From IMG/VR virus record IMGVR_UViG_2526164599_000010: a stretch of DNA of 37,768 nucleotides; one strand, written 5' to 3'. Each line of letters begins with the position of its first letter. Within the stretch, counting starts at the first letter, position 1. This DNA is from a virus (lineage: Duplodnaviria > Heunggongvirae > Uroviricota > Caudoviricetes). Below are positions 3,787 to 34,749 of this stretch, one piece after another. Made by a program: the position numbers and the translations under genes. Below the pieces are notes generated by a model, which worked only from the letters and a program-made list of their open reading frames with translations, made no database searches and was not told where the DNA came from.

Positions 3787-4314
3787 TTACTCAGGCTTTT
3801 GTGGCCATTCGGGCTTTGCCGTATCCACACGGCTGACCAGAACGCTGTAGCGCTCCCAGGCTTCCAGTCGTGTACGTTCCTCATCTGTTGCCATATTCAG
3901 CCTGACAGCGCGTTCCAGTGGCTGAATAACGCTTTCCGCTTCGGAAAGTAACGCGGCCTTTTGTGATTCGGCCTGTTGTTGCTGTTCTTCTGCCGTATAA
4001 ATCCGTTTAACCACAGCACCATCCTTAAACATCCATTTACCTGAGTCGTCAGCACGTCGGTTGGAGGTAATATCAGGAACCTCAACAACGCTAAAACCTT
4101 CAGGATTAAGCGTTGAAGCATCTCTGGTGATAGCGACAATAATATTATTTTCATCGTAAACAATCTTTATTGTGTCTGACTGAAAGTTCTTCACTTCCTC
4201 ATACCAGTTTTTCCCGTCTTCAGTGTAAAGCCAGATGACTCCATGCTTCTTTGTTAACTCATACTGTTCCAGTGTTTTAGCGTTACCCGCTTTTATGTTC
4301 TTTAAGTGCATCAT
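3787..4314 (-). CDS. U: Tail-fibre assembly protein U
   Basis: 175-aa ORF; immediately downstream of S; paralogous to U'. Confidence 0.85.
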
Positions 4315-4315
4315 A

Positions 4316-6076
4316 TTAAACGCTCGCTACATTATACCATGTGCCATTTATATACTTTTGAACGGGTCTGTAATAAACACCCGCAATATTATCGGCGGAG
4401 TTGGAACCTGTATCCTGAACATTTATACCAGACAATACATGACCTGAAGGGCACTGGAAGTTCCATGTTTGCCAGTTGTTCACACCATAATATTGCTGTG
4501 AGCCAAGCCGAACATCTTTCACATATCTGGAATCAATGTTACCCCAGTTGCTTGGTTGTATCTGACCGTTTACAGCAAATGTCACCGAGTTATCTGTATT
4601 TCGCTGACTATAGAAATGCCAGCCTGAATCATCACCAAGCTCTGCAACAGTTGGTCTTGACGAATTTCCCCACAAGTTAAATGATGCATTACGGGCAGCG
4701 GTATTTGCACTTGAAAGTGTGAAGAACTTACTTTCCCCAGCCTGAATACCCTTTAATGATCTTGCTGAACCATTTATAAAGCGGAATACATGCACACCAT
4801 TAGCATAAGCATCCAGCACCCCATCACCATTTTGTTTAAACCCGGTATCGTTATCTCCTAAAACTATTGAATTGCCACCCAGGGCATTAGCCGTTCCAAT
4901 CCCCAGATTTCCGCTAAAAATGGCATTAATACCGAATATTGAGTGAGAACAATAAAACCCTCGCCCATTGTTAAAATCCAGAATAGCTTGTGCGTTCGTG
5001 CTTTCTGTCGCGGGATTAGTTGCTCCCCACTTATATGTTGTTTGACCGACAGTATAATCCTGAGTTGGAACAATAACCGTTAGCCCTTCTTCAGCAGAAA
5101 CCCGCACAGGAAAAGCCCTGCCTTCAACGTAAAAAACGCTGCATACATCATCTTCTTTAAGGCTTGTTACAATGGAATGGATTGCGCGCTCATTAGTCTG
5201 ATACGTCGAAAAATAACCTGCCGCATATGAACCACGATCAGTCCAGCCACCAGGCATTACCATTCCATTGAATTCGCAGTTATTCATTGCGTAATCACCA
5301 CTGGCAGATGTGGTCGTTATAATCACTCTGGAAGCCAGCTCGCCAGTGCTGCCTGTGGAACGCCGGAAAATAACTGGATACCACTTTCCACCAACTGCAT
5401 TAGACGGCGCATTAAATGCGTACTGCCGCATTCCTTTTTTCTTATCCACCTCGCCTTTGCTGTAAACATTAATGTTACTCAGGAAGCGATCCTTATCAGG
5501 AATATCCGCGCCGTTCTGGTTTTTTTGTAATGCGCCAGAAGCCTGATTTACCGTTTCCTGTAAACCGACGTTTTGGATAAACAGCGGCTTATTGGGAATA
5601 TCTGCTCCGTTCCGGTCTTTTGCCAGACGGGCATTGGCATTATCCATCGCAATTTTCACCGCTTTTGCGGTGGCTGCCAGCGTTTCACTGGGGCTGTCAG
5701 TGGCACTGGTTAGCTGAACGAGTCCTTTTTTGTTCAGGCTGGCATCATAGATATCCAGATTTTCACGTGCTGTACGCTGTGCTGATGCCCCGGCAGTTTT
5801 AATTTCGCTGAGGTTATTTTTTATCAGCAGCGCGTTATTGCTCATAATGGCTTTAATGGACAGTGCAAGCTGGTTTAATTTTGTTTTATCCGGTTGAATA
5901 CCGGCTTCTTCCAGCGTGTTTAATAACTCCGCCTGCACAATATTAAACCAGTCCATGCCGGGCCATGTGATAACATTATTCCCGTCACCTTCTGAAAACC
6001 AGCGAACGATAGCACTACGCTGGGCGGATACGGGCGGCATGACGGTTACGCCGCTGTCGTTATCAATATAAAACAT
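4316..6076 (-). CDS. S: Tail fibre protein S (constant part Sc fused to variable part Sv across the gix site; the S-U expressing orientation)
   Basis: 586-aa ORF running continuously through gixL (5555..5580); N-terminus [26 protein letters not shown]; Gly/Asn-rich C-terminal region typical of fibre tips. Confidence 0.85.
5499..5710. repeat. Inverted-repeat arm (S side) of the invertible segment; partner of 1..211
   Basis: See the 1..211 entry; this copy keeps the S reading frame intact. Confidence 0.9.
5555..5580. other. gix-like recombination site (gixL-like) inside the S coding sequence
   Basis: TTCCTGTAAACCGACGTTTTGGATAA, exact reverse complement of the site at 130..155. Confidence 0.8.
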
Positions 6077-28633: not shown

Positions 28634-29023
28634 TTACAGAAGTGAGGGCTGGTACTGGCGGTATTTCAGCCGTCGCATCCGGCGAATGGCCTTGTAAACC
28701 GTATTGAAAGTGACACCATAACGGGTGGTCAGTTCGCTGACGTTGCGACCGTTAAAATCATTCCAGATACGCAAATCCCGAATCAGCGAGTCCAGAACCT
28801 GACCGCGTGGAATGTAGACCTGACCGCCGCCCAGATGCTTACAGATAGCCACAACAATCTCCAGTGAATGGGCAGGATCAACACCCAGCCGGGACAATTC
28901 CCCGCGTAGTAAATCGTTCAGCTCCGCCAGCAGTGCCGGAAAGCGTGACGTATCCTCTGCGGGATTGTCAAGATGTGCCAGGATGGTGTCATCCTGCAAA
29001 TCACCAAATAAATCTTCCGTCAT
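28634..29023 (-). CDS. mor: Middle operon regulator Mor
   Basis: 129-aa ORF, last gene of the early operon, ATGA overlap with gemA; same family as C. Confidence 0.85.
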   Translation of the reverse strand: MTEDLFGDLQDDTILAHLDNPAEDTSRFPALLAELNDLLRGELSRLGVDPAHSLEIVVAICKHLGGGQVYIPRGQVLDSLIRDLRIWNDFNGRNVSELTTRYGVTFNTVYKAIRRMRRLKYRQYQPSLL

Positions 29024-29571
29024 TGTGCCATCCTCCGTGTCTTTCTGGCATGGGCATAAGCCGCCGTCATGGCATCATAGCCGCGCAGTTCACGCCCGGA
29101 CGGACTGACTGGCAACGGAAGCCCGTGACGGGAAAAGGCTTCACGAATACAGCGGATATGCCACTGCTTGAGAGTTTCGAGAACAATCAACAGGGTGTCG
29201 CCATGACACCACGCCAGCGTGGAAACGCCCTGTCCGCCATTACGTTTCGCCGTCAGGCGCTGAACATATTTATCCAGCGCCACATCACCGCCATCGGTAA
29301 TAAAACCGTCTTCTGCCATCTGCTGCCAGACTTTGTATACCTTCTCGCGGGGCGTGACATGCCCCTTAAAGCGGCGACGTGGATGTTTATTCAGCTTCTT
29401 AAAGCCGCGTTCTTTCATGGCATCGAGCACCTGTTCCAGTTGCGTAACCGTCAGCTCGCGGCAACTGATTTTGCCCGTTTTCTGCATCAGAAAAGCGCGG
29501 TAAGTGTCGTCGTCGAGTTGTAGCTCCCGACGGGCGACATGGATTAATTTAATCAGGGATGTGCGATTCAT
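29020..29571 (-). CDS. gemA: GemA protein
   Basis: 183-aa ORF directly upstream of mor; preceded by AGGAGGT. Confidence 0.75.
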   Translation of the reverse strand: MNRTSLIKLIHVARRELQLDDDTYRAFLMQKTGKISCRELTVTQLEQVLDAMKERGFKKLNKHPRRRFKGHVTPREKVYKVWQQMAEDGFITDGGDVALDKYVQRLTAKRNGGQGVSTLAWCHGDTLLIVLETLKQWHIRCIREAFSRHGLPLPVSPSGRELRGYDAMTAAYAHARKTRRMAQ

Positions 29572-29845
29572 GATCGTACCTCCGGAAAGAGGCGGTGCTG
29601 CAACACCGCCTGAATTTACACATCAATCAGAGAGGATTTTATGGAAAATAATGTACAACCTTATGATGTTGCAGGTTATGCGATTGCATCAGCACTGGTG
29701 CGCCTTCTGGTGAAGAAGGCGATCATCACCGCAGAAGAGGGCCAGGCCATTTTCAGCTCTTCAGCAGAGATTTTAAAAGATGCGCCTGCAATAAGAACAA
29801 GCCGCCGCGAAAACATGCAACTGTCAAAGATCATGGAAGACATTA

Positions 29846-30148
29846 TCAGTTCGTTAGACCCAGATGCTGACGGATCTCAAAAGCCTCAAACACATGAGCG
29901 TCAGTAACAATATCCTGGTCTGATAACCCCAGCCTGCGGCGGATGTACTCCTCGCGGGCTGTTTCATTTTGCAGTGCCACTACTGTTTCCAGACGATTCA
30001 TTTCGCGGTTGATAATGTCACGGACTTCTCTGGCGGTGAGATTATGCTTAATACCATATTCAACGATAGCGCGAACACGTTCCAGCATCCCTTTTTCAGC
30101 CATGACGTTATCAATATTAAGGGGAGTAAATTTATCTTCATTGTTCAT
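29846..30148 (-). CDS. Early semi-essential region protein, function unknown
   Basis: 100-aa ORF, translationally coupled to the upstream gene. Confidence 0.6.
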   Translation of the reverse strand: MNNEDKFTPLNIDNVMAEKGMLERVRAIVEYGIKHNLTAREVRDIINREMNRLETVVALQNETAREEYIRRRLGLSDQDIVTDAHVFEAFEIRQHLGLTN

Positions 30149-30468
30149 TTTGCGGCCCTCAGAATAAATTCAGGATAAAATTTCAGACTCATTTGCCGTA
30201 ACACATCCAGTGCAGCAACGGCTGCTGATTTATCGTTGCCATCAGCAATAGCGCGGAGATTTTCAATAATCCAGTGAGGACTCAGTGACTCAGCAATAAT
30301 GCCAAACCGGTACGCCATGACCTCATCAATAGCTTTTTCATGAGACGTCTCATATACAAAATTCACAAATTCATGCACTTCTTTTTTCGGCAAACCACCG
30401 GCAATCAGCAGGGCGGCAAGCTCTTCTGATTTTGAAAATACACCATTATTCATATCACTCACCTTCAC
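30145..30468 (-). CDS. Early semi-essential region protein, function unknown
   Basis: 107-aa ORF. Confidence 0.6.
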   Translation of the reverse strand: MKVSDMNNGVFSKSEELAALLIAGGLPKKEVHEFVNFVYETSHEKAIDEVMAYRFGIIAESLSPHWIIENLRAIADGNDKSAAVAALDVLRQMSLKFYPEFILRAAK

Positions 30469-30637
30469 AATTCATGCACGCCGTGTCATCGCCCATATCG
30501 CAGTGGTTGCATTTCTGCCCGCCACAATGAGGGCACTCTTTCAGATATTCAGGGGATTCATTACCGCAGGTCGGGCATTCCTGTTTCACCGTGGTAAATT
30601 TCCCCAGCCACGAATACGATGTTTCACTGTTTTCCAT
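30455..30637 (-). CDS. Small zinc-ribbon protein (three CxxC pairs), function unknown
   Basis: 60-aa ORF with CPTC...CPHC...CNHC...CMNC. Confidence 0.6.
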   Translation of the reverse strand: MENSETSYSWLGKFTTVKQECPTCGNESPEYLKECPHCGGQKCNHCDMGDDTACMNCEGE

Positions 30638-31154
30638 TAGTTACCTCCGCCTGTTTTTGCGCCCGGATAAATTCGTCAGAAAGGATTTCAGTCATGCGGC
30701 CTTGCGCGGGTGTCATCCCCGTCATGACGTAAATCACATCACCAACACGGAACCACTGGAGCGGCCCGAATATTGTTGCGCTGAAATCCAGTCCCAGTGC
30801 GGGTAAAAGAGCGTCTGTGCGGGCGTAAGTGACCGGAATATTCTCCTGCCATATTTTCGCCAGCTCTCTTGCCTGCTCCCTGAGATGAGCAGGTATCCGC
30901 GAAGTTCTGGGCCTGCAACTGTTACCTGATGCGGGCCGTTGTACGGTCCACAGCTCCCGCGAGAAGGGGCGCTCATTCCCCGGAAAGTTCACACCATGAA
31001 AATGACGCCCACCAATACCGGTGCTGAATACTGACCGGCAACCACAGCCCAGAACCTTATCAAGATGGCGGGCTTCTTCGCGTAGTTTCAGGCAGTCCGC
31101 CATAAACTGGTCCCATGCCAGCAGTGCTGCGGGATTTGACGTTTTAAAAAACAT
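30624..31154 (-). CDS. Early region protein, function unknown; start set at the internal ATG 31154, abutting the upstream stop
   Basis: Track ORF 30624..31193 begins inside the upstream gene; MFFKTSNPAALLAWDQF... from 31154. Confidence 0.55.
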   Translation of the reverse strand: MFFKTSNPAALLAWDQFMADCLKLREEARHLDKVLGCGCRSVFSTGIGGRHFHGVNFPGNERPFSRELWTVQRPASGNSCRPRTSRIPAHLREQARELAKIWQENIPVTYARTDALLPALGLDFSATIFGPLQWFRVGDVIYVMTGMTPAQGRMTEILSDEFIRAQKQAEVTNGKQ

Positions 31155-31684
31155 CACGCCACCTCCTGCACCGTTGCGGGAACCGGAGAACAATCAAGAA
31201 TGAGATAACGCAGTACATGGTCGGTGATATTCCAGGCGCTTGAACTGCAAATAAAACGCCCCAGCCGGATATCGATATAAGCCATCACAAAACGGGGCAT
31301 TCCCTGTTCGCACATTCTGTTATCCACCTCAGCAACAATGTGGACTGACTCACAGGTCAGCACGCCCGTCGCAAACTCTTTTGCCAGTGCGGGGATGGTA
31401 TTACCTTCCACCCAGGGTAATGAGCGACGCCAGTTGCACCACACCGCATCATCAACAGCAGGCTGTTCAGTTGCGCTTCGTCTTACAGGCGGCGTCGGAC
31501 GCGGGCGCGGAACGTCATAAAATCCGTTGCATTCGGTGAGAACGCCGGCATCAACCGCATCACGCAGGAAATACACCATTGATGAGGAAGGCATCTTCAT
31601 TTTTTCAGCCAGAACTCCGCAGGTCAGGCGTCCGTAAGCCCGTAATAATGTGCTGACACCATTCAGAATTTTTGCATCAACCAT
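31154..31684 (-). CDS. Early region protein, function unknown
   Basis: 176-aa ORF preceded by GAGG; first gene after the gam-proximal intergenic gap. Confidence 0.6.
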   Translation of the reverse strand: MVDAKILNGVSTLLRAYGRLTCGVLAEKMKMPSSSMVYFLRDAVDAGVLTECNGFYDVPRPRPTPPVRRSATEQPAVDDAVWCNWRRSLPWVEGNTIPALAKEFATGVLTCESVHIVAEVDNRMCEQGMPRFVMAYIDIRLGRFICSSSAWNITDHVLRYLILDCSPVPATVQEVA

Positions 31685-31782
31685 GTTTTATTCCTCAGTA
31701 ATCTTTTTCAGGCGCGAGCAATCCCCTGACGCATCGCGCCATAATTAAAAGAATGTGAATTAATTAAATATTAATGGTGGTA

Positions 31783-32307
31783 TTAAATACCGGCTTCCTG
31801 TTCAAATGGAATAATGGAAAAATCTTCAATTCCCGATTTAACCGTAATTCCGGCAACACCTGCGACGGCTTTTGGTTCCAGTAAAATCGCCTCCTTGTTG
31901 ATTTCCTGCTTCGTGCGAATAAAGCGTTGCAGGCCAAGGCGCTCCAGCGTTTCCATCACTGCATCCATACCACGAATACTTACTGATGGTGGACGGACCC
32001 GCCACGATACATCACCGGTGACAAGATTCGCCGTCTTCACTTTGCCGCCGTTCGTCAGTTCGTCGCGGTTCGCTTCACACCATCCCTGAACGCCTTTTGA
32101 AAGGGTTTCAATATCGGTTTTAATCGGTGCAATCCGGGCCGCAAATTTCTCCGTAATTTCCGCGATGGCATCATTCATTTCCGTTTCCAGACGTGATGCT
32201 TCGCGCTGTAAATCCCCGATGCGTTTAATATCGATAATCACCGCATCGCGGTTTTGTGGCACATAAGCCGCTGCGGCACTTTTGATGCGTTTTGCTGGTT
32301 TAGCCAT
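31783..32307 (-). CDS. gam: Gam, Ku-like DNA-end-binding host-nuclease inhibitor
   Basis: 174-aa ORF MAKPAKRIKSAAAAYVPQNRDAV...; recognised as Mu Gam by sequence recall and by size and position. Confidence 0.85.
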   Translation of the reverse strand: MAKPAKRIKSAAAAYVPQNRDAVIIDIKRIGDLQREASRLETEMNDAIAEITEKFAARIAPIKTDIETLSKGVQGWCEANRDELTNGGKVKTANLVTGDVSWRVRPPSVSIRGMDAVMETLERLGLQRFIRTKQEINKEAILLEPKAVAGVAGITVKSGIEDFSIIPFEQEAGI

Positions 32308-32326
32308 AAATTAAAGCTCCTGTTAA

Positions 32327-32626
32327 TTAATATCCGCTGTATACAATGCTGGATACAGCACGATTGCTTAATTCCATCTTTCGGGCAATGACATGAATAT
32401 CCAGCCCTTCTTTATAAAGTTCACGACACAAATATTTATCGTGTTCACTGACCTGGTATGCACATAACGATATTCCGTGCCTTCTGGCATGTGCCCGGAG
32501 GGCGGTTGTGGCGACGTTCAGTTTTTCCGCCATTTCTTCAACGGTCATTTTTCCAACGTTGGCTTCAATAAATTCCCGGTCTTCGCGTGACCAGTGCTTA
32601 CGATTACACTTCATGTCAGCCACCAT
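32327..32626 (-). CDS. Small HTH-type DNA-binding protein
   Basis: 99-aa ORF with a helix-turn-helix-like stretch (MTVEEMAEKLNVATTALRAHARRHGI). Confidence 0.6.
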   Translation of the reverse strand: MVADMKCNRKHWSREDREFIEANVGKMTVEEMAEKLNVATTALRAHARRHGISLCAYQVSEHDKYLCRELYKEGLDIHVIARKMELSNRAVSSIVYSGY

Positions 32627-33046
32627 TCAGTACAGCAGAGGCTCGCGCATTGATGCCGGAATATGCCGCAGCGATAGCTGAACGGCTTTCAGGGCAAGCG
32701 AGGAATAACAGCAGCGCGCCCAGCTTTTTGCCATTAATCGGTAATCGCGCCAGATACGCTGCCACGTTTCACGTGCTTTCGGGTCTGATACACAGATGTA
32801 TTCCCGGTCCATGACGTATTCCCATAAATCCACGTTGAACGCACCGCCAAACGCAATGGCGCGGGAAATGCTTTCACCGCAATAACGCGCACAGATGCTG
32901 TAATGGTCGAAAGCAATCAGGTAAGTCTTTTCACCATAACCATCAACTTCACGCGCACAAATAAACTCGCGTAATTCACCACCGTTGTTATTACGTTCCC
33001 GGATTCGGATTAATGCCTGAATTTCATTTCGGATTTTGACGTTCAT
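32627..33046 (-). CDS. Early region protein, function unknown
   Basis: 139-aa ORF. Confidence 0.55.
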   Translation of the reverse strand: MNVKIRNEIQALIRIRERNNNGGELREFICAREVDGYGEKTYLIAFDHYSICARYCGESISRAIAFGGAFNVDLWEYVMDREYICVSDPKARETWQRIWRDYRLMAKSWARCCYSSLALKAVQLSLRHIPASMREPLLY

Positions 33047-33066
33047 TGTCAGCGCTCCTTTGCGAA

Positions 33067-33336
33067 TTAATGTTTAACCGCATTCACCGGACGTGGTACT
33101 AAATCACATTCAGCTTCCATACCCGCTTTCTTCATAGTGGTCAGCATCTCATCTTTGGCCTTTTTAATAATTTCAGGAGCCATAGTCAGGACGATATTTG
33201 CCAGTAAATCATGAGGCCCGGTATTTTCCGTTGGCGAGATATCTGCAAGACATGCTTTTGCATCCAGAACTTCTCTGCGCCCATTGCAACCGTCACTACT
33301 TTCCAGCCATGTAAACTCAAAGATAACTTTTGCCAT
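33067..33336 (-). CDS. Early region protein, function unknown
   Basis: 89-aa ORF. Confidence 0.55.
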   Translation of the reverse strand: MAKVIFEFTWLESSDGCNGRREVLDAKACLADISPTENTGPHDLLANIVLTMAPEIIKKAKDEMLTTMKKAGMEAECDLVPRPVNAVKH

Positions 33337-33347
33337 TTTGCTTCTCC

Positions 33348-33560
33348 TTATTGATTAACGGGCGTTGCATTTGTGATTTTGTTAAGTTCACAAAGCACAT
33401 TTTCTGCGTGATGATGGTTGCCGACATGAACGACCAGCCTGTGACCACCAACAAATTCAAAAGCAACACCGCCCTCAACAGTCGTTTCCATTACATTGAC
33501 ATTATCAAGGTTGATTAACTTACTAATTCCCAGATTATCGTGAATATTTATCACCATCAT
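33348..33560 (-). CDS. Early region protein, function unknown
   Basis: 70-aa ORF. Confidence 0.5.
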   Translation of the reverse strand: MMVINIHDNLGISKLINLDNVNVMETTVEGGVAFEFVGGHRLVVHVGNHHHAENVLCELNKITNATPVNQ

Positions 33561-33567
33561 TTAAATG

Positions 33568-33795
33568 CTATCTCCAGATTATCTGACAACCATTAAGACG
33601 GGCCGTCCATACAGAACGGGCCACCCCGGACTTATGCTCCATAATTCTGACCGCGTTTTTTACCAGTTCCACCGGTGGGTAAGTGATTTCAAGAATCGGA
33701 CGCGCCACGCCGAGATATGATTCATTTACATGGCTCCCGCGCGCCTGTAACCAGTTCTGCGCATCCGTTGCCATTTTTATATTTCGGGCCATCAT
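33568..33795 (-). CDS. First small gene after B; position and size fit Mu kil (host-killing protein), assignment by position only
   Basis: 75-aa ORF 15 nt downstream of the B stop. Confidence 0.6.
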
Positions 33796-33810: not shown

Positions 33811-34749
33811 TTAATTACGCAGCAGCGTTGAAATATCAACGTCCAGGTCTAATTCACGGAAAGCCTGACGCAGATAATCTTCGTTAACACGCTCACCTTT
33901 ACCGTGAGCCGTCATGGCGGCAAGGCGAAGTGAATGATTCAGAATGCGAAGCGCACCTGGTTTCTGCGCAATCTGCTGTAATAACTCCAGTTCTTTTTCG
34001 CCGTTAATCTGCCAGGCATCCGCAATAGCTTTTACATCGGCTTTTTTGGTTTTATTAATTGCAGTGCGCTTTGCAATACGGGAAAACAGACGGGCAAATT
34101 CAACCGTTCTGTTACCCCCCGTCATATTTGAATAAACCCGGTGATTTCCCATCAGCACAAGGCCAGTGCGGGTTGATTCCTGTAACAGGCGGAGTTCTTC
34201 CAGAACTTCGGCACCAAGATGATCAGCTTCGTCGATGATAACCAGCCCCTGTGTACCTTCAAGGCGACGTCGCAGGGCGCGGGAGAGCGGCCCTTTACGG
34301 CGTGGTGCGTCATTCATTCCCAGCTCAAACGCCAGTTCAGTAAGACATTCCAGAACGCTGGCACAGGATGGCGTAATGGTGATCATCCAGACATTGTTAT
34401 TGGTGCGGCGATATTCACGGGCCGCTTCGGTTTTGCCCACACCAGGATTGCCACATACAACAGCAATACTTTCAGTCAGGCTGGCAAAACGCATACTTGT
34501 CCAGATTTGTTTTACCGTCTGCGTTTCCACAAAGCGGGGCGGTTCAGGTAGTTCTGCAACTGCATGATATTTTTCCAGCCAGCGTTGCAGAATTTGTGAA
34601 ACACGCTCGTTATCCCCGTTGTACTTATCATTGATAAAACTACTGATAGTTCCGGTAGAAAGTCCGCTCTCAAGAGCAATTTGTTTAAAGGTGGTTTCTT
34701 CATTTTCTACAAGCGTGCGCAGTCCTGCGCGAATATCGGAAATATTCAT
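33811..34749 (-). CDS. B: MuB transposition target-DNA activator (AAA+ ATPase)
   Basis: 312-aa ORF MNISDIRAGLRTLVENEETTFKQIALESGL...; Walker A GNPGVGKT, Walker B LVIIDEAD; directly downstream of A. Confidence 0.9.
   Translation of the reverse strand: MNISDIRAGLRTLVENEETTFKQIALESGLSTGTISSFINDKYNGDNERVSQILQRWLEKYHAVAELPEPPRFVETQTVKQIWTSMRFASLTESIAVVCGNPGVGKTEAAREYRRTNNNVWMITITPSCASVLECLTELAFELGMNDAPRRKGPLSRALRRRLEGTQGLVIIDEADHLGAEVLEELRLLQESTRTGLVLMGNHRVYSNMTGGNRTVEFARLFSRIAKRTAINKTKKADVKAIADAWQINGEKELELLQQIAQKPGALRILNHSLRLAAMTAHGKGERVNEDYLRQAFRELDLDVDISTLLRN

Follow-up and report, generated by a model that had tools for sequence, protein, structure and literature searches.

Phage Mu is found in every textbook, but even after decades kil and gam are the only genes with an assigned function in the roughly 4 kb that separate its transposition gene B from gemA. 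What kind of genes fill this interval, which of them are stable residents, and what might the others do? We addressed these questions in a 37,768-nucleotide stretch of DNA (hereafter the window) from a virus of the Caudoviricetes (Duplodnaviria; Heunggongvirae; Uroviricota; IMG/VR record IMGVR_UViG_2526164599_000010), in which a block of small minus-strand open reading frames (ORFs) occupies positions 29846-33795. We consider it highly likely that this block comes from a transposable E. coli prophage of the Mu type and forms the semi-essential early (SEE) segment of its early operon, in which a conserved core is combined with a set of exchangeable cassettes.

A Mu-type semi-essential early region

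Megablast comparisons identified the genus of the block as Muvirus. The Yersinia phages vB_YpM_5 and vB_YpM_6 are 96.9% identical to it across 95% of its length, phage Mu is 97% identical across 80%, and SfMu is 93.5% identical across 87%. The ORFs correspond one-to-one with Mup05 (kil) to Mup14 of annotated Mu records. Like the SEE region of Mu (NC_000929 4315-7957), the block lies between B and gemA on the same strand and with the same gene order; shared segments are 96.7-98.5% identical in pairwise blastn alignments, and Kil, gp8, gp9, Gam, gp11, gp12, gp13 and gp14 are 94-99% identical at the protein level. Position and strand between B and gemA/mor, a kil directly after B, the presence of gam, and a dense run of small ORFs (11, of 60-176 aa) that are poorly conserved among transposable phages all agree with assignment to the SEE region. 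A preliminary description made from the sequence alone had proposed the same assignment, which the 97% DNA identity to Mu over shared parts and the order B-kil-...-gam-...-gp14-gemA bear out.

The block also differs from Mu. A 292-bp insertion (30152-30443) adds a 102-aa gene between gp13 and gp14 that Mu lacks, the gp7-slot allele is only 26% identical to Mu gp7, and the 70-aa protein in the gp6 slot is unrelated to Mu gp6 (16% identity). The extra gene and the gp7 allele (97%) also occur in phage vB_YpM_5, whose DNA is 97.3% identical from 29001 to 33356. In the gp6 slot, vB_YpM_5 and SfMu both have a protein of the Mu gp6 family rather than the allele of the window; that of vB_YpM_5 is 78% identical to Mu gp6. 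The extra gene is also SfMu ORF14 (gp14 in the RefSeq record); SfMu differs in that a 184-aa DUF5420 gene lies between gam and gp11 and gp12 is not annotated. ORF14 was termed ‘unique to SfMu’ when that phage was described (2015; PMC4406740), but a gene of this type is also present in vB_YpM_5 and in the window.

Published work describes the SEE region as long and poorly conserved, with small uncharacterized proteins (PMC8705779), and as containing kil, gam, sot, arm and cim (PMC4553209). Genes of the semi-essential (SE) region are largely uncharacterized (PMC3820752, PMC3325207, PMC8705779), in agreement with what the preliminary description had said of gene functions in the block, and hosts infected with MuBam regain viability when the SE region is deleted (PMC3325207). 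Our literature search found no functional study of the uncharacterized ORFs in the block.

Eleven tightly packed genes

The block and its neighbors, all on the minus strand and with A and B upstream and gemA and mor downstream, are organized as follows.

B: 33811-34749, minus strand; transposition gene
kil (Mup05): 33568-33795, minus strand; 75 aa, small basic host-killing and septation-inhibiting protein, first gene after B
gp6-slot cassette: 33348-33560, minus strand; 70 aa
gp7-slot cassette: 33067-33336, minus strand; 89 aa, vB_YpM_5 allele
gp8: 32627-33046, minus strand; 139 aa, conserved-core protein
gp9: 32327-32626, minus strand; 99 aa, predicted tandem helix-turn-helix (HTH) protein
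gam (Mup10): 31783-32307, minus strand; 174 aa, Ku-like double-strand-end binding protein, host nuclease inhibitor
gp11: 31154-31684, minus strand; 176 aa, winged-helix-like N-domain, proline-rich linker, Gp11_C domain
gp12: 30624-31154, minus strand; 176 aa, basic
gp13: 30455-30637, minus strand; 60 aa, putative acidic twin zinc-ribbon protein with four CxxC pairs
extra gene (SfMu gp14, vB_YpM_5 gene 21): 30145-30453, minus strand; 102 aa, helical
gp14: 29846-30148, minus strand; 100 aa, acidic, helical
gemA: 29020-29571, minus strand
mor: 28634-29023, minus strand

The preliminary description had given exact coordinates for the ORFs it named and the correct range of sizes (60-176 aa); the dense block of small genes that it reported stands, but the count is 11 rather than about ten. 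These 11 minus-strand ORFs tile 29846-33795 between B and gemA, leaving 156 of 3,950 nt non-coding. Because each ORF matches a PHROG family (E 5e-28 to 4e-105), the ratio of nonsynonymous to synonymous substitution rates (dN/dS) runs from 0.09 to 0.69, and 96% of the block is coding on one strand, the ORFs are real genes and not chance reading frames. The exact proteins are already public in the draft genomes of E. coli DEC13D and DEC13E, where they are named “hypothetical” or “Mu prophage protein”. An NCBIfam scan of the block proteins returned sub-threshold matches only, and none for gp13.

Translational coupling, which the preliminary description had extended to the small ORFs in general, holds for five of the ten junctions within the block (overlap or gap of <=1 nt): gp8/gp9 (TGAATG, gap of 0), gp11/gp12 (1-nt overlap), gp12/gp13 (14-nt overlap), gp13/extra gene (1-nt gap) and extra gene/gp14 (ATGA overlap). 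Four further junctions have gaps of 7-20 nt, each with its own Shine-Dalgarno site, and gam and gp11 are separated by a 98-nt spacer. The B/kil junction at the upstream edge of the block spans 15 nt and likewise has its own Shine-Dalgarno site. Shine-Dalgarno motifs precede all starts except that of gp9, whose ATG abuts the gp8 stop codon.

A conserved core and exchangeable cassettes

We mapped the window proteins onto a comparative set of 80 Gam-anchored and 69 gp13-anchored loci and computed dN/dS against IMG/VR relatives. Nearly all Muvirus-like loci carry kil, gp8, gp9, gam, gp11, gemA and mor. Variation across the 80 Gam-anchored loci is found in the gp6 slot, the gp7 slot and the interval from gp11 to gemA, the last of which occurs in nine combinations of gp12, gp13, the extra gene and gp14. 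Where Gam is only ~60% identical, gam, gemA and mor alone remain recognizable; gp8, gp9 and gp11 are therefore not general requirements of transposable phages.

Substitution rates divide the genes along similar lines. Core values are low (kil 0.09, gam 0.09, gp8 0.15, gp11 0.17, gp9 0.20), and gp12 groups with them at 0.15. Cassette values are higher (gp14 0.31, extra gene 0.32, gp7-slot 0.41, gp13 0.45), reaching about 0.7 for the gp6-slot gene (range 0.56-1.1; three comparisons). With the exception of single gp6-slot and gp13 comparisons, dN/dS is below 1 throughout. We therefore recognize a conserved core of kil, gp8, gp9, gam and gp11, all of which are under purifying selection, and cassettes that are swapped in and out, namely the gp6 slot, the gp7 slot and the gp11-to-gemA interval.

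Relatives carry other cassettes, including the 184-aa DUF5420 ORF in the gam-gp11 spacer (SfMu and loci L004, L013 and L027) and a 92-aa cysteine-rich ORF after gp11. Other temperate phages also encode small accessory proteins in their early regions; those of Pseudomonas transposable phages that modulate the host are one example, and the ‘ea’ genes of the lambdoid early-left region are another. Those genes resemble the block in being small, fast-evolving, mosaic and located downstream of replication or transposition genes; they differ in that we found no sequence relationship between the block and a characterized member.

gp13 as a putative acidic twin zinc-ribbon module

Among the cassette products is the 60-aa gp13. 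It contains four CxxC pairs (C21/24, C35/38, C43/46 and C54/57), not the three of the ‘triple-CxxC’ protein in the preliminary description, whose own list also gives four. All eight cysteines are near-invariant in close homologues, the core reads KCxxCDMGDDxxCxNCE, and the protein is acidic, with an isoelectric point (pI) of 4.5 and a net charge of -7.4. Matches to Pfam zinc-ribbon families all fall below the gathering threshold (DnaJ_CXXCXGXG 19.2 bits against a cut-off of 32.7, DZR 16.2 against 27.3, Zn_Ribbon_1 14.6 against 25).

A gp13 profile searched against 1.84 billion representatives gave 172 matches at E <= 1e-3, and the strict motif C-x2-C-G...C-x2-C...K-C-x2-C-D-M-G-D-D-x2-C-x2-C was present in 85 of the 149 examined. 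Net charge is negative in 83 of these 85 strict-motif representatives, and the last cysteine lies <=10 residues from the protein end in 72; 39 have N-terminal extensions, in proteins of up to 316 aa. We describe membership of the family by the pattern C-x2-C-G-x(5-20)-C-x2-C-x(3-5)-C-x2-C-D-x-G-x4-C-x2-C, located near the C-terminus of a net negative protein, and residues 21-57 of gp13 match it (PHROG 5584; C-terminus of PHROG 6418).

A profile of 27 diverse cores matched solved structures in its first half alone, to the classical C4 ribbons of L40e and RadA (E about 0.01-0.02, best 0.011), and the second half, KCxxCDMGDDxxCxxC, had no match in Pfam or PDB. The first two CxxC pairs of gp13 thus align with generic C4 ribbons (DZR, Zn_Ribbon_1, L40e, the RadA N-terminal finger), whereas the gp13 domain differs from these in being strongly acidic and C-terminal, with an unmatched second half and scores below cut-offs. 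We conclude from these sequence patterns that gp13 is predicted to belong to a family of acidic twin zinc-ribbon domains, so far without a name, that temperate phages encode. The preliminary description had considered this protein among its most tractable candidates for binding nucleic acid or defense proteins. Nucleic-acid binding is unlikely because gp13 is strongly acidic and its acidity is conserved in 83 of the 85 representatives; instead, it most likely acts as a protein-interaction module.

Named families were considered and set aside. The four CxxC pairs of gp13 recall the DnaJ cysteine-rich domain (E 0.0015), which holds two zinc ions, but this match is below the cut-off, and of the four gp13 segments CPTCGNES, CPHCGGQK, CNHCDMGD and CMNCEGE only the last fits CxxCxG. 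For the Lar restriction-alleviation family (PF14354) the best match among 15 members had E 0.14, the window protein scored 11.8 bits against 28.6, and the motif does not fit either. The gyrase inhibitor YacG was an attractive lead because Mu depends on gyrase; its match (E 0.13 with a narrow profile) disappeared with a broader family profile, YacG is not among the Pfam matches of gp13, and gp13 lacks a YacG-like C-terminal tail.

The module occurs in varied company. In the 231-aa protein P0070 (loci L012, L015, L019 and L047) a different N-domain of ~175 aa precedes the module in the same reading frame, and the 90%-identity cluster of this protein has 138 members, 60-63-aa gp13 forms among them. 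The N-part of P0070 belongs to phrog_2510 and is also encoded by itself (P0071, 129 aa). A Salmonella-type lineage has a second fusion, in which the module is joined to another mosaic N-region (P0075, 271 aa). The two fusion N-regions are unrelated and are built from phrog_2510, phrog_60 and phrog_660 modules, which are large PHROG families. Elsewhere gp13 directly follows gp11 with its own ribosome-binding site (L004, L009), lies in early-left regions beside DnaQ-like exonuclease, xis and int genes (L127, L132), or is carried by 52-kb Klebsiella plasmids, which from their size and non-mobilizable typing are taken to be phage-plasmids. Five distant viral gp13 loci again adjoin gemA/mor.

We also observed a 514-bp unannotated gap between gp13 and the gp11 homologue in the SfMu record (NC_027382, L154; locus positions 1093-1606). 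It probably holds an unannotated fusion-type N-domain or a remnant of one.

gp12 and its link to gp13

gp12 is a basic protein (176 aa, pI 9.3), and its homologues (54-99% identity) carry PF26885. Its predicted structure is confident, with a predicted local distance difference test (pLDDT) score of 92, and has no solved structural relative; a PDB sequence and profile search gave nothing significant. gp13 lies downstream of gp12 in all 17 complete Muvirus intervals that carry gp12 and in 13 of 13 more distant Mu-like loci that do so. Since gp12 was never found without gp13, and since the gp13 module is C-terminally fused to other proteins elsewhere, gp13 probably works with gp12.

The in-frame fusions of relatives had also suggested a programmed frameshift from gp12 into gp13. 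This is unlikely judging from the junction: gp13 has its own Shine-Dalgarno site, GGAGG, within the 3' end of gp12 and 6 nt ahead of its ATG, and fusion would need a +1 shift at a place with no slippery site. Homology of gp12 to the alternative cassettes (the 184-aa DUF5420 ORF and the fusion N-domain) was rejected by hhalign, with a probability below 1%. A database protein of 212 aa (P0066) combines the first half of gp12 with the second half of Mor (PF26885 and PF08765), probably as the result of a deletion in a Mu prophage.

Core proteins

Two core proteins have established counterparts. Kil is 99% identical to Mu Kil and matches phrog_2743 (E 2.8e-43); the preliminary description had named gam as the only gene of clear function, overlooking kil, which both this family and the Mu annotation identify. 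The kil note of the Mu record reads ‘protein Kil, also known as cim’. Gam is 99% identical to Mu Gam and matches PF07352 at E 1e-41 (142.8 bits against a gathering threshold of 28.3, covering profile positions 6-148 of 149).

The remaining core proteins are less easily placed. gp8 is 94% identical to Mu gp8 and matches phrog_3690; Pfam and PDB searches gave no relative. gp9 matches phrog_323, ‘transcriptional regulator, D5-like’ (E 5e-28), and is confined to Mu-like phages in tblastn searches. Five Pfam HTH families, including Sigma70_r4_2, HTH_Tnp_1 and GerE, match residues 22-49 and 73-93 at E 5e-4 to 9e-3, all below the gathering threshold, and the putative second HTH (LCRELYKEGLxIxxIAxKMELS) is invariant down to 47% identity. 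The HTH label given to 32327-32626 by the preliminary description is therefore supported at family level; a PDB search gave no solved relative.

gp11 consists of an N-terminal domain with weak HTH_20/MarR similarity (residues 9-53) joined by a proline-rich linker to a Gp11_C domain (PF25754, E 1.3e-40, residues 90-167). C22, C111, C146, H156 and several aspartates and glutamates, spread over both domains, are invariant down to 36% identity, a pattern that hints at metal binding or at an active site of the Cys-His type. A PDB sequence and profile search with gp11 found nothing significant.

Structure prediction was among the checks that the preliminary description had recommended for every ORF. 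The gp12 model was confident and that of gp13 was not (pLDDT 54), and PDB searches with gp8, gp9, gp11, gp12, gp14 and the extra gene product gave nothing significant.

Other cassette proteins

The gp6-slot protein matches phrog_3375 (E 3e-33) and has no tblastn match among 50,697 phage records. Its DNA matches eight complete E. coli genomes at 81-89%, and the exact protein is present in E. coli DEC13D. The gp7-slot protein matches phrog_2230 (E 2.6e-35), and related loci carry either alleles that are ~40% identical or the Mu type. The extra gene product matches phrog_1988 (E 6e-49), with a motif (AESLSxxWIIEELR...AAVAALDVL) that is invariant down to 40% identity, and gp14 is 99% identical to Mu gp14 (phrog_6075); neither has a relative in Pfam or PDB. 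The gp6-slot, gp7-slot, gp13, extra gene and gp14 products of the window have pI values of 4.5-5.8. We scanned ten proteins (those of the block genes except gam) with the PADLOC-DB 2.0 defense models: nine had no match, and gp9 had two weak HTH-type matches only (E 2e-3).

Proposed role of the block and alternative explanations

By analogy with Mu (PMC3325207), the block is most likely the distal part of the long early transcript from Pe and would be dispensable for plaque formation. As the junctions show, translation proceeds through tight coupling or through a gene's own Shine-Dalgarno site. Kil would block host septation and kill the host, and Gam would cap double-strand DNA ends against RecBCD, as is established for the Mu proteins. 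For gp9 and gp11 we predict an accessory role in the Mu lytic program that involves DNA binding. The gp6-slot, gp7-slot and gp12-gp13-extra-gp14 cassettes come and go among phages that are otherwise near-identical, and evolve faster. Within them, gp13 is predicted to be an acidic twin zinc-ribbon module of ~42 residues, probably binding two zinc ions, that most likely acts by protein-protein contact and not on nucleic acid, and that probably works together with the protein encoded upstream of it, here gp12. A more speculative extension, which we regard as rather doubtful, is that gp13 is the Mu representative of a portable host-protein-docking module with interchangeable partners and forms with gp12 a new two-part device for host takeover or counter-defense.

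Several observations weigh against parts of this account. Transcription from Pe through the block is taken over from Mu. The HTH assignments of gp9 and gp11 depend on sub-threshold Pfam and PDB matches. The AlphaFold2 model of gp13, from a 15-sequence alignment, reached a pLDDT of only 54, so its zinc binding and two-site topology are read from the sequence. gp13 also occurs without gp12, directly after gp11 or fused elsewhere, and the gp12-gp13 link could be mere adjacency. Finally, for nine of the 11 proteins neither experiment nor significant similarity assigns a function.

What the genes are for can be explained in more than one way. The cassettes (gp6-slot, gp7-slot, gp12/gp13, extra gene and gp14) might be counter-defense genes that neutralize restriction or abortive infection and are swapped as hosts change, a possibility that we hold tentatively and think less likely than not. 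They sit early, their products are small and mostly acidic, their presence or absence is mosaic among phages that are 97% identical elsewhere, and their dN/dS values exceed those of the core; the gp13 module in lambdoid-type early-left regions and phage-plasmids is as expected for a portable accessory function. On the other hand, we found no similarity to named anti-defense proteins in searches that did not include an anti-defense profile library (the Lar match being at E >= 0.14 only), gp12 is basic and under strong purifying selection, and the papers searched contained no experiment tying the SEE region of Mu to defense evasion. For the core, gp8, gp9 and gp11 could be helpers of Mu replicative transposition or early regulation that act on Mu or host DNA and underlie phenotypes of the ‘arm’ (amplified replication of Mu) type; this too is a tentative proposal and less likely than not. 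Conservation of these genes with kil and gam across Muvirus under purifying selection, the HTH-like segments of gp9 and gp11, the restriction of gp9 to Mu-like phages, and the arm and cim functions (replication, immunity) reported in the SEE region (PMC4553209) are consistent with such a role. However, every HTH match is below its curated threshold, no binding site was identified, and all three proteins are unrecognizable in Mu-like phages whose Gam is ~60% identical. Counter-defense for the cassettes and replication or regulatory help for the core are not mutually exclusive.

We consider it improbable that some cassette genes are instead expressed from the prophage to benefit the lysogen, through superinfection exclusion or defense against other phages, rather than to serve lytic growth. 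Mu lysogens reportedly transcribe the SE genes at a low level, both from Pe and from another promoter, and it has been suggested that some of these genes benefit the host (PMC3820752); in relatives, the same interval contains a small cysteine-rich ORF with a hydrophobic N-terminus (L027, L029, L031). Yet inspection by eye found no such N-terminus in the window proteins, defense models matched nothing beyond the two weak HTH-type hits of gp9, and infected cells survive better once the SE region is deleted (PMC3325207), which suggests products that harm rather than protect the host. That several of the small ORFs are chance frames in the B-gemA spacer has next to no probability, as the conservation data already refute it. 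Nothing speaks for it except that the ORFs are small and lack annotation. Against it stand a single strand that is 96% coding, starts that all have a Shine-Dalgarno site or stop-start coupling, a PHROG family for each ORF, dN/dS values below 1 with the exceptions given above, and homologues of gp9, gp11, the extra gene, gp14 and gp13 that are still intact at 40-50% identity. We therefore retain the reading of the block as a Mu-type SEE segment of conserved core and exchangeable cassettes as highly likely.

Spacers and other features of the window

Two further features lie at or within the edges of the block.

gp15 (Mup15): 29641-29907, plus strand; 88 aa, convergent, 3' end overlapping gp14 by 62 nt
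GC-rich hairpin: 31711-31740, minus strand; main stem of the gam-gp11 spacer

Public Mu annotations conflict over the spacer between gp14 and gemA: NC_000929 places gp15 on the opposite strand, and AF083977 places a 55-aa Mu_54 on the same strand (29676-29843, minus strand, in the window). gp15 has an upstream Shine-Dalgarno site (GAGAGGA) and matches phrog_8747 (E 1e-60), and its ORF is intact at 51-52% identity in L027 and L044; the Mu_54 frame is not conserved. For Mu_54 we found no Shine-Dalgarno site, PHROG family or intact homologue. Conservation of the reading frame thus favors gp15 over Mu_54 as the likely gene.

The 98-nt gam-gp11 spacer (31685-31782) is the only sizeable spacer in the block and the point at which the DUF5420 cassette is inserted in relatives. 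It has a folding energy of -21.9 kcal/mol (z -2.4). Terminator-like sites in the block are not in excess (9 against 5.8 +/- 2.3 expected), in keeping with a long early transcript, and an Rfam scan of the whole window gave no match.

Just upstream of gemA (29585-29606, minus strand), a perfect 8-bp GC hairpin, GGCGGTG...CACCGCC, is followed by CTCTTTCC. On one side of it is the stretch that Mu annotation calls a ‘semi-early promoter’, and on the other is the ribosome-binding site of gemA. The hairpin may act as an attenuator, or as a bidirectional terminator that also serves the divergent gp15. Far from the block, GC content falls to 0.415 at window positions 4001-5000, compared with about 0.55 across the late region, and GC skew changes sign near there; this may mark the invertible tail-fiber segment or its neighborhood.

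Implications for Mu-type phages

The copy of the SEE region in the window adds nothing categorically new; it is a new mosaic combination, which is ordinary for a Mu-type phage. Placing it beside its relatives separates a conserved core (gp8, gp9 and gp11) from exchangeable cassettes, and favors gp15 over Mu_54 between two conflicting public annotations of Mu. The most useful leads are the predicted gp13 domain family, which is acidic, modular and widespread, and the linkage of gp13 to gp12. These leads would be useful in screens of phage early genes for host-takeover or anti-defense activity.

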